Positions 31,623 through 34,199 of a stretch of DNA of 35,929 nucleotides are shown here, one piece after another. The stretch is from positions 1 through 35,929 of the forward strand of contig JAGAAT010000022.1 of assembly GCA_017615095.1 (NCBI GenBank), in the 5' to 3' direction. The stretch's first letter is position 1. The number at the start of each line of letters is the position of its first letter. Both the position numbers and the translations under genes were made by a program. This DNA is from a bacterium. Its GTDB lineage: Bacteria; UBP6; UBA1177. The notes under the pieces are model-generated. The model ran no database searches. It was not told the origin of the DNA and worked only from the letters and a program-made list of their open reading frames with translations.

Positions 31623-34199
31623 TCAAAGGATCAGAGCAGAGCAGCCGGAGGATTTCTTTTTGGTTGAATTTCCGTTACCGTTTTCGAACATGCAGTACTG
31701 TGAACAGCCGTCGCCGTCCATTCTGTTGCCGTCATCGCACTGCTCTCCCGGATCGACGTAACCGTTTCCGCAGTTCGCATGGTCTCCGCTGCTACCGCTT
31801 CCGCCTTCGTTGCCGCCGCTTCCGCCGCCGTTACCCGGATCGTAGCAGCTTGAACGATCCCAGCTGAGGCAGTCGCTGGCGCACTTCGCGTTTCCGCCCT
31901 CAGGAGCACCCGCAAGCATCTTGCAGGGAATAGTTTCGGAGTCGCAGACCTCGCCCGTATCGACATTCTTGTTGCCGCAAAGTGATCCGCCTCCGCCCGA
32001 GCATGTCGAGGTGTCGTAGCCGCGGCAGTCAGCTCTGCACATTGCATAACCGTCCGTGAAGTTGCTGTCGATGCTGTGGCATGTCTTCGTACCGCCGTCG
32101 CAGACCTCGCCCTCCTCCTTGACGCCGTTTCCGCAGTTCGCGGTCGCAACAGTTCCGGAAGGCAGTATCTTCTGGGCGATGCAGGAATAACCCTCTCTGA
32201 CAGTGTTGTAGGAGCACTTCGCGATGCAGTGACCTTCATAACATTCGACCTTGCTCGTGCCGTTGTAGCAGTCGGTATTCGAGTTGCAGTTGGCAGAGCA
32301 GTAACCGCCGTTCCAGCCCTCTCCGGTGAGGCAGACAGGATTCGCAGCAGTGTTGATGCAGTCGGATGCTTCGCTGCACGCCGATCCGGCACGTCCGTTT
32401 CCGCCGCTTGCGCAGTCGTCATCGACCGTACCGCTGCAGTCGTCATCCTTGCCGTTGTATTCGTCGTAACATCCGTCGATCTTTGCCGTCGAGATGCAGG
32501 CTCCGCACGTCCCGTTTTTGGCACCGACAAGCATTGCGTTCGCATCGACGACACCGAAGCCGAAGCAGGGTGAATGTTCAGCCGAACCGCTCGCAAGCCA
32601 CTCGTCGGACTGAGTCGTCCAGCCGCCTTCGGAGCAGCTCTTTGTCGTTTTGAACGCTGAGGACTTTACGCAGTTCATCGCACCCGAGAAGCTGAGTTCC
32701 GGAGCACCCGCGAGCATAAGAGCTACAGCTCCAGCCGCAACAGGCGTAGCCGCACTCGTTCCGCTGAATCCGCTCGTGTAGTCGCCGTTGCTGTCAAGGC
32801 TTCCGAGGCAGTTGTAGGAGTTGCACGCATAGCCGTACTGGTTGCCCTGGATATCGGTAGTCGCAGCACCGGCGCCGGCGCTGATATCTACCTCGGCACC
32901 GTAGTTCGAGTAGCTTGCCATACTGCCGTTCGACTCGAGAGCGCTGACCGTCAGCATGTTGTTATCCTTTAAAAATGCCTGGTTGGATGTCGGGCAGTGA
33001 GAGTTTCCCGCAGCCCACAAAAAGATGGTGCCCTTGCCGCCGCGGCCGTTCGAAATACCGTAAGTGATACCCTGCGAACTGCTGTTGTCTGCCGGGCATG
33101 TCGTGCAGCCTCCGTAGTTGTTGGAGTCCTGGCAGCCCCAGCTGTTGTTTACGACCCAGGCGCCGTTATCGACTGCGTGTTTGATAGCCTTGTAGGTATC
33201 GCCGGACTGGTATGTCGAAAGGAATCTGATCGGGATGATCGGACAGCCCCAGCATGATCCTGCAACACCGATCCCGTTGTTTGTCTTCGCAGCAGCAAGA
33301 CCTGCGCAGGCAGTTCCGTGCGGAACGGATTCATGGTCGTCCTGGCTTGTCATCGGAGCGCCGCCCGTATTTCCGACAAGGTCGATACCGAGATTCGCGA
33401 GAACGTTCAGATCGGGGTGGGTCAGATCGACGCCGCTGTCGATGATGGCGATCCTGACATTATCATTTCCCTCGCCTGTCTCTGTATCCCATGCAGACGG
33501 TGAATTGATCTGCGTAAGGTGCCACTGGCTCGAAAAATAGGGATCGTTCGGAGTCACCTTTCTCTCGTTGTAGAACCACGGCCAGTTCGGCTGTGCCCAG
33601 TGGACAAGCCTGCGCTCGTAGAGCATGTTCGCGAAGGCAAAGGGATCTACACCGACCGGAAGCTCGACCGAATAGAAGTTGTCGTCAACGACTTCGACCA
33701 CCTTCAGGTTGAACATGTCCATGATCCTGTACTGCTCTTCAACAGGAGTGGACTCGTAGAAGTGGATCCTCATCGTTCCGTCGAGAACGATCAGATGATC
33801 CGGAGCGTAGTATGTCAAAACCGGCCACGCAGCAACGTTTTTCGCCGCGAGAAGGTTCCTGACCTGCATCCAGTTCGCTCTGTCTGACTTGTCGAGCGCG
33901 ATCCGGAAAGCCCTGTAATTATCCTGATCGTATGTGACTTCGCCGAGCATATCGGCAATTTTGATGCCGTTGAACTCGACAGCATCAAGCATTTTAAGGT
34001 TTACACTGTGCGGGATCGCGATCTGATCATAAAGCTGAAGCAGGAACTGCGGTCCCAGATTCATGTGATAGTAAAACGTGTCATAAAGTCTGCCGTCCTC
34101 TCTTTCTACCAACTGTCCGAGGACCGGTTTCGGTTCGGCAGCAGAAAGTGACATAACAAAAAGCGACAAAAAAAGCGCCCAAGCCGCTCGCTTAAGCAT
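31623..34199 (-). CDS. Secreted subtilisin-like serine protease (peptidase S8) with a C-terminal Cys-rich stalk and a short GCSALIL tail
   Basis: Signal peptide [21 protein letters not shown]. Triad contexts IAIIDSGVD (Asp), HGTACAG (His) and [16 protein letters not shown] (Ser). aa 569-840 are Cys-rich and include three CGN(G/K)...GExCD repeats. The protein ends [14 protein letters not shown]-stop. I chose the ATG at 34199 because GGAGG lies 5 nt upstream. The track start is 34211. Confidence 0.9.
   Translation of the reverse strand: [858 protein letters not shown]

Follow-up and report, generated by a model that had tools for sequence, protein, structure and literature searches.

The last 14 residues of a secreted S8-family subtilase, encoded on the minus strand at positions 31626-31667 of a bacterial contig (JAGAAT010000022.1; the whole stretch of 35,929 nucleotides that was analysed is called the window here), probably represent a short, helix-less, CaaX-length form of a lineage-specific, cysteine-type C-terminal sorting signal of the MYXO-CTERM type. 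In this form, a disordered linker that is often rich in Lys and Ser leads into an invariant Gly-Cys, a Ser or Ala, four or five mostly hydrophobic residues and the stop codon. Counted from the cysteine, the consensus reads C-[SA]-hydrophobic-[T/L]-hydrophobic-hydrophobic, and its carriers are Sec-exported proteins that are not N-terminal lipoproteins. What is new here is that a Cys signature and a stop alone are conserved on many unrelated exported proteins, beside a tripartite form of the same signal, and that a divergent myxosortase-like protease is kept in a lineage outside the phylum of the known systems of this kind.

A short tail shared by unrelated secreted proteins

The subtilase gene (31623..34211, minus strand) encodes 862 residues, comprising a signal peptide (residues 1-25; 34137-34211), a Peptidase_S8 catalytic domain (residues 250-509; 32685-33464; PF00082, E=1e-39), several Cys-rich modules and the tail. 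The last of these modules, a Cys-rich acidic repeat at residues 813-845 (31677..31775; TIGR02232, 44 bits against a cut-off of 20.8), lies immediately N-terminal of the tail, which consists of the flexible Lys/Ser-rich linker S-T-K-K-K-S-S (residues 849-855; 31647..31667) and the signature G-C-S-A-L-I-L (residues 856-862; 31626..31646), directly followed by a TGA stop at 31623-31625. An earlier reading of the DNA, made from the sequence only, had placed a 14-residue tail here, directly behind a Cys-rich repeat, and coordinates, sequence and repeat all proved correct. Most of the last ~70 residues are modelled by AlphaFold with a pLDDT below 50 (792-815, 821-825 and 829-862). Since other orthologues carry a different Cys knot or an acidic low-complexity linker where this one has the TIGR02232 repeat, the repeat is no part of the signal.

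The same architecture ends a C25-like peptidase of 787 residues, encoded on the same strand at 10667..13030, with a signal peptide, a PF01364 domain (residues 173-574; 11309-12514; E=2e-22) and Cys-rich modules of its own. Its linker K-K-S-Q-K-K-S-E-S-S-S-G (residues 769-780; 10691..10726) runs into the signature G-C-S-V-L-L-F (residues 781-787; 10670..10690) and a TAA stop at 10667-10669, so that the protein ends in ...SESSSGGCSVLLF-stop or, over a longer stretch, KKSQKKSESSSGGCSVLLF-stop. The sequence-only reading had held that the two tails are too dissimilar in DNA for a recent duplication, and this is borne out: when they are aligned on the Cys codon, just 18 of 36 nucleotides are shared, which argues against such an event. 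A long tail whose membrane helix has been hidden by a frameshift was considered and rejected, because only 47 and 54 nucleotides separate the stops of the S8 and C25 genes from the next gene starts. Among the 127 open reading frames (ORFs) of at least 60 codons in the window, these two alone end in C-[SGA]-x2-6. Given the window's own amino-acid composition, the probability that at least two of its 21 genes end in G-C-[SA]-x3-5 is ~7e-5, and the 1260 control ORFs taken from unrelated genomes include no G-C tail of the short-form kind.

A second C25 peptidase of 573 residues, encoded just beyond the window start (11921..13642 of the longer contig record, L149), is an N-terminal lipoprotein (LLSACGG) lacking a C-terminal tail, with a weak match (60 bits) to PorU, the sortase of type IX secretion. 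Among paralogous C25 enzymes, one thus relies on an N-terminal lipobox and another on a C-terminal Cys tail.

How far does the tail reach beyond this contig? A search with the S8 protein returned ~75 full-length orthologue clusters, from 92% to ~40% identity, together with shorter paralogues at ~35-38%, and in 78 of the 83 closest relatives (92% to ~38% identity) the chain ends in G-C-[SAGT], four to six further residues and a stop. The five exceptions are four fragments of 477-759 residues and one protein of 844 residues with a different ending (P0057). Both the Gly at position -1 and the Cys are present in all 78 tails; upstream, positions -2 and -3 are mostly Ser (-2 also Gly) and positions -4 to -7 are rich in Lys and Ser, and downstream, position +1 is Ser in 67 tails, +2 is Val, Leu, Ala or Ile, +4 is Val, Leu or Ile and +5 is Phe, Leu, Ile or Val. 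The Leu of the 'x-L-x-x' ending in the sequence-only reading is not conserved, position +3 being Thr in 38 and Leu in 21 of the 78. That reading's motif stands in its core, whereas its Lys-rich part is common but not universal, some carriers having acidic or Ala/Ser linkers. Five residues follow the Cys in 59 tails and six in 18; the last residue is hydrophobic or D, N or F, a polar D or N being added in 12 of 78. In an alignment of 29 orthologues with a mean column identity of 49%, G856 and C857 are invariant and S858 nearly so, and the codons of the conserved residues differ synonymously between tails. The constant core amounts to [SG]-G-C-[SA] and four or five mostly hydrophobic residues.

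The tail is not confined to subtilases. An exhaustive representative search found 12 C25 relatives of the lineage that end in the short tail, and 24 more distant C25 or Cys-rich proteins that end in a Cys, a membrane helix and an Arg cluster. A scan of metagenome DNA for S-S-G-C-S-hydrophobic-T-hydrophobic-hydrophobic-TAA gave 58 matches, of which 12 terminate long ORFs; all 12 belong to secreted proteins of the source lineage, namely S8 and C25 proteins and a new collagen/DUF7151 family of ~316 residues. About 45 of the 58 are chance matches in tiny ORFs, some of them a recurrent antisense artefact in gut contigs. Two other search routes were of little use: a tail-only profile is useless in a database of 5.8 billion proteins, where its best possible score of ~21 bits corresponds to E ~65, and a scan of species genomes with the S8 alignment was dominated by the generic subtilase pattern and returned only four close loci. 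Sampling of neighbourhoods added a protein of ~850 residues with an FTP/PepSY motif. One locus has a run of four consecutive short-tailed genes (L148 8183..16004), comprising three S8 paralogues (GCGCSII, GCGCVLVGI and GCGCAVIY) and a DUF11-like protein; tails such as GCGCSLVF occur on more distant carriers. With the tails trimmed off, the S8, C25, FTP/PepSY, collagen/DUF7151 and DUF11-like families have no similarity to one another.

These many further carriers answer the doubt raised by the sequence-only reading that no other members might exist, and its proposal that selection acts on the peptide motif gains support from the 78 of 83 S8 relatives, with their invariant Gly-Cys and synonymously varied codons, from the 12 C25 proteins and from the three additional unrelated families. 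As to its question whether the tails cluster on Cys-rich-repeat proteins, the carriers are not restricted to these. They are mostly hydrolases and adhesin-like proteins; a signal-peptide h-region is found in 111 of 114 and an N-terminal lipobox in one, a doubtful case, whereas several other secreted proteins of the window are lipoproteins.

Some observations from the sampled loci stand apart from this argument. The antisense artefact is an ORF of ~35-55 codons ending ...ALLSAP[SK]TEVPS.V[IM][KR]SLPIY[LF][FS]SSGCSLTLI on contigs from human-gut and other metagenomes (L088, L090, L093, L100, L101, L104, L109, L114, L116, L118, L122, L133, L138 and L142); most probably it represents a conserved gene of unrelated bacteria read in the antisense frame, and no tail carrier. 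The four-gene run in L148 is followed by an overlapping gene for a predicted YgjP-like/WLM metalloprotease (PF01863). Three contigs of ~10 kb each (L115, L123 and L132) share a conserved order of a tailed FTP/PepSY protein, a beta-lactamase-fold protein without signal peptide, a tailed S8 protein and a PNGase-like lipoprotein, with one short-tailed and one long-tailed DUF7151/collagen paralogue on the opposite strand. The last gene of that order has its counterpart in the window, where a PNGase F-like lipoprotein (PF09113 N-glycanase_C; 29917..31575, minus strand) lies directly downstream of the S8 gene, as it always does throughout the lineage (also in L084, L115, L123, L128 and L132). This suggests a conserved pair of protease and N-glycanase for degrading glycoproteins.

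A long form of the tail and a myxosortase-like protease

The same genomes contain a long form, which continues beyond the short-tail signature through an acidic spacer and a membrane helix to a basic cluster, the tripartite layout of classical MYXO-CTERM. One such tail, ...GGGCAVTALPTD-helix-ARKER, sits on a DUF7619/DUF11 protein (L001) on the same contig, 8 kb from the S8 gene of the window; others read ...DDEGGCAISAVSDSD-helix-KVFAAKK (L085) and, on DUF7151/collagen paralogues, ...SSSTGCSLSAVDEDD-helix-RFARG. The long-tailed DUF7151 genes adjoin short-tailed paralogues with which they are 38-43% identical, and the short-tailed DUF11-like protein of L148 has 43% identity over 586 residues to the long-tailed proteins of L001 and L085. 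As judged from such pairs, the two forms appear to be interchangeable. Because both occur on paralogues and homologues, the short tail can be delimited as (S/G)-G-C-[SA]-hydrophobic-[ST]-x-hydrophobic plus stop. The sequence-only reading had supposed that a full-length tail on close relatives would make the short one a decayed remnant: long tails do exist in the same genomes, on paralogues and in other families, but throughout the lineage the orthologues of both proteases keep the short form. The short tail is a stable alternative form and no decayed remnant.

The relation to MYXO-CTERM, of which the sequence-only reading had seen the Cys core alone retained, finds support in distant S8 and C25 homologues, where a tail of Cys, helix and Arg occupies the same place and scores 15-28 bits with TIGR03901 (cut-off 20); several of the distant S8 homologues with such tails are Myxococcota by source name. 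Isolated short tails match no NCBIfam or Pfam model at E<=10, TIGR03901 included, and the tails of the lineage's long-form proteins are likewise missed by the curated models, again including TIGR03901. Haft judged TIGR03901 hits outside Myxococcota to be false (10.1101/2023.06.07.544157). The Myxococcota context implied by the sequence-only reading does not extend to the source lineage itself: relatives of its NusA, the single marker used for placement, form a set at 62-95% identity and then drop abruptly to ~50% or less against Desulfobacterota-, Thermodesulfobacteriota- and Myxococcota-type sequences, so that no named phylum comes closer than ~50%. By this marker, the lineage is a deep group and not a recognisable member of Myxococcota. 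G+C content among its members spans 35% to 59%, and they were sampled from guts and from the environment; the window itself derives from ruminant-gut metagenome contigs.

Signals of the MYXO-CTERM type are tripartite and are paired with the myxosortases MrtX, MrtC and MrtP (10.1101/2023.06.07.544157; PMC11980579). Inside the window, no CPBP processing enzyme is present. On the same contig, 2.6 kb beyond the window start, a gene at L149 14540..15178 encodes an Rce1-like CPBP protein of 212 residues (PF02517, 53 bits, cut-off 22.4), with the EExxxR, FxxxH and HxxxN motifs in the form of IPEEFFFR, LFGLIH and FHAVSN. Its seven best NCBIfam models are all of the myxosortase type: MrtP (82 bits), MrtC (80 bits, nearly full length) and Mrt_core (79 bits), then MrtJ (62 bits, cut-off 75), MrtS (55 bits), MrtX and MrtZ. 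The CPBP orthogroup comprises ~76 clusters of 206-215 residues at 46-100% identity, all from the source lineage, and its spread matches those of S8 and NusA; identity then falls off abruptly, and genuine MrtC and MrtP proteins come next among the database relatives. A single contig of 68.8 kb thereby holds two short tails, one long tail, a CFI-box-CTERM protein and the CPBP. Together, the long form and this divergent Mrt-like enzyme would make up a new myxosortase-type system outside Myxococcota.

The start of the CPBP gene is overlapped by a gene for a multi-pass membrane protein of 464 residues (the pair spans L149 14540..16572, 2.6-4.7 kb beyond window position 1) with a soluble middle of ~200 residues that matches no family. 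The pair is kept in L154 (47.5% identity) and absent in the more distant genomes L152 and L153. This neighbour could be a separate sortase 'N-terminal domain' or the missing modifying enzyme.

The CFI-box-CTERM protein is encoded by the first gene of the window (99..2003, minus strand), a fusion of 634 residues that combines an MXAN_2561-like adhesin region, an internal CFI-box-CTERM domain and an MXAN_2562-family outer-membrane beta-barrel ending GIVFEF. The CFI-box-CTERM domain (residues 307-375; nt 879-1085) reads GGFCFVATACFGS ... hydrophobic segments ... KPKRR and scores 67 bits with NF041770 (cut-off 40); we found no mention of a 'CFI-box' in the literature. The protein scores 105.5 bits with the MXAN_2562-family barrel model NF040596 (cut-off 100) and 48.6 bits with NF045522 (cut-off 150). 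Its layout, with the sorting signal inside the chain and a barrel behind it, resembles that of TraA/TraB or MXAN_5598, and it may be a further substrate of the nearby CPBP.

Proposed processing, rival explanations and known signals

For MYXO-CTERM proteins, the proposed route leads from Sec export, anchoring by the helix and lipidation of the Cys, with Lgt as leading candidate, to cleavage distal to the Cys by a CPBP enzyme and delivery to the surface (PMC11980579). In an analogous scheme for the tails described here, the Cys thiol would be lipidated after Sec export, and Lgt or an Lgt-like enzyme would be the leading candidate because S-G-C-S is similar to positions -2 to +2 of a lipobox. A single myxosortase-like intramembrane protease of the CPBP/Rce1 type is conserved in the lineage; it would then clip off whatever follows the Cys, which is a pentapeptide in a short tail and the helix in a long one, and the enzyme carrying the tail would stay on the cell envelope or surface through its C-terminal lipid. 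More specifically, the short form might act in a periplasmic counterpart of the eukaryotic CaaX pathway, a helix-less tail of seven residues being lipidated and then trimmed by a myxosortase-like Rce1 homologue, a proposal that we put forward tentatively and hold somewhat less likely than its alternatives taken together.

Several points weigh against a sorting signal processed in this way. We infer lipidation, cleavage, final location and the link between enzyme and substrate from parallels with eukaryotic CaaX processing and with the model that Guo, Haft and Wall (2025) proposed for MYXO-CTERM. The CPBP falls under every curated cut-off: seven members, the contig's own and six others, score 73-86 bits with Mrt_core (NF040914) against a cut-off of 100, 79-94 bits with MrtP (cut-off 250) and 76-86 bits with MrtC (cut-off 195), which are still their best-scoring models. 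The co-occurrence of CPBP and tails was seen at sampled loci, which were skewed towards tail-bearing genes, and in three other genomes neither tail genes nor the CFI-box gene lie next to the CPBP gene, an arrangement that fits an enzyme with one-to-many substrates and proves nothing. The protease may act on the long form alone, or on nothing but the CFI-box-CTERM protein three genes away. Finally, a stretch of five residues is too short to keep a protein at the inner membrane, so that the helix step of MYXO-CTERM processing is missing, and the short form could have a different fate, for example release.

Such a release or secretion variant would have the same machinery, or an export system, recognise the signature without adding a lipid anchor, the carriers becoming soluble exoenzymes or being joined through the Cys by a disulfide or thioether to a surface partner. 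We regard it as rather unlikely, though it is the main alternative: most carriers are degradative enzymes such as S8 and C25 that are able to act extracellularly, the short form lacks any membrane tether, both forms occur on adjacent paralogues, suggesting different fates, and Guo, Haft and Wall 2025 (PMC11980579) report extracellular release for a fraction of MYXO-CTERM proteins. However, mere release would not call for a conserved Cys tail, and no partner protein was found; an invariant Gly-Cys at a fixed distance from the C-terminus argues instead for a specific chemical step at the Cys. The fixed distance would also suit a docking peptide, whose free hydrophobic C-terminus binds a PDZ-domain protease or chaperone (Ctp/Prc/DegP type) or serves an outer-membrane partner as a strand resembling a beta-signal. 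The frequent T-x-hydrophobic-COOH end does resemble class I PDZ ligands, but docking is improbable in our judgement, as it leaves the invariant Gly-Cys unexplained, the last residue is a polar D or N in 12 of 78 tails, and the same signature is internal in the long form, away from the C-terminus.

The idea that the tail is what neutral decay has left of a long signal, or that the likeness arose by chance, could draw on the full-length tails that homologues carry elsewhere. It is effectively refuted by the ~80 orthologue clusters that keep the tail down to ~38% identity with synonymous codon variation, by its presence in five unrelated families, and by the control ORFs and the window-wide probability given above. 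Even less credence is due to a mimic of the eukaryotic CaaX box that a host cell would prenylate, as in Legionella or Salmonella effectors. The ruminant-gut source and a C-terminal Cys followed by aliphatic residues may evoke this very unlikely reading, but four to six residues, mostly five, follow the Cys and not three, the carriers have Sec signal peptides, and the same tail occurs in environmental relatives and in the long form with its membrane helix. A type I secretion C-terminal signal was rejected because the carriers have signal peptides, and a GPI-like signal because the tail is too short.

Compared with known systems, the short-form sorting signal that we favour shares most with MYXO-CTERM: an invariant Cys in a C-terminal signature of the G-C-[GS] type (some members here being GCGC), a disordered linker before it, many unrelated Sec-exported carriers and a CPBP of the myxosortase clade in the genome. 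It differs in that the short tail has neither membrane helix nor Arg cluster and only four to six residues after the Cys, the lineage lies outside recognisable Myxococcota with a CPBP below all Mrt cut-offs, and its own long form has an acidic spacer. Other Cys-type signals that are paired with myxosortase-like CPBPs likewise have a Cys-containing C-terminal signal, but all are tripartite, with helix and basic cluster, and have other signatures and lineages; for JDVT-CTERM, one enzyme faces one substrate. With eukaryotic CaaX and Rce1, the tail has in common a very short C-terminal Cys motif with aliphatic residues and no helix, a candidate protease of the Rce1/CPBP family, and a proposed order in which the Cys is modified before the distal residues are clipped. 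Here, however, the Cys is followed by five or six residues and not by three, processing would be extracytoplasmic after Sec export and not cytosolic, the lipid is presumably no prenyl group from a soluble transferase, and no methylation step is implied. The N-terminal lipobox processed by Lgt and LspA offers a third likeness, S-G-C-S fitting its positions -2 to +2 and the proposed steps being thiol lipidation and cleavage beside the Cys; yet the tail is C-terminal, its hydrophobic residues come after the Cys and not before it, there is no Leu at -3, and the carriers have no N-terminal lipobox. GlyGly-CTERM with its rhombosortase (Vibrio cholerae VesB) is similar in that its C-terminal tag, once removed, leaves secreted proteases on the cell surface, but its signature is Gly-Gly without a Cys, it has a membrane helix and its enzyme belongs to the rhomboid family.

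To our knowledge, all prokaryotic C-terminal sorting signals described so far are tripartite, including LPXTG, PEP-CTERM, PGF-CTERM, GlyGly-CTERM, MYXO-CTERM and its Cys-type relatives, and we found no description of a helix-less or CaaX-like bacterial Cys-type sorting tail in curated libraries or the literature. Haft contrasts 'longer' bacterial signals with 'shorter signals such as CAAX' (10.1101/2023.06.07.544157). If our reading is true, the short tail would be a minimal natural substrate of the myxosortase enzyme class and a natural intermediate between MYXO-CTERM-type signals and CaaX, in which membrane helix and Arg cluster are dispensable, tying bacterial sorting signals to eukaryotic CaaX/Rce1. 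The source of Cys lipidation and the requirement for a helix could then be addressed in the published co-expression assay of MrtX in E. coli. Because annotation models miss both forms, predicted surface proteomes are in error for this lineage, an abundant one in ruminant guts.

Other genes in the window

Rfam and tRNA scans found no RNA genes in the window. Between the CFI-box fusion and the C25 gene, a lipoprotein alpha-amylase of 1057 residues (PF00128; 7439..10612, minus strand) carries ~300 N-terminal residues of EGF-like Cys-rich modules, which is unusual for a bacterial amylase. On the plus strand, a gene at 24070..27834 encodes a protein of 1254 residues that has a zinc ribbon (PF13717) at its N-terminus and, behind it, very long TPR arrays; proteins that combine a zinc ribbon with a long TPR array are expanded in myxobacteria.

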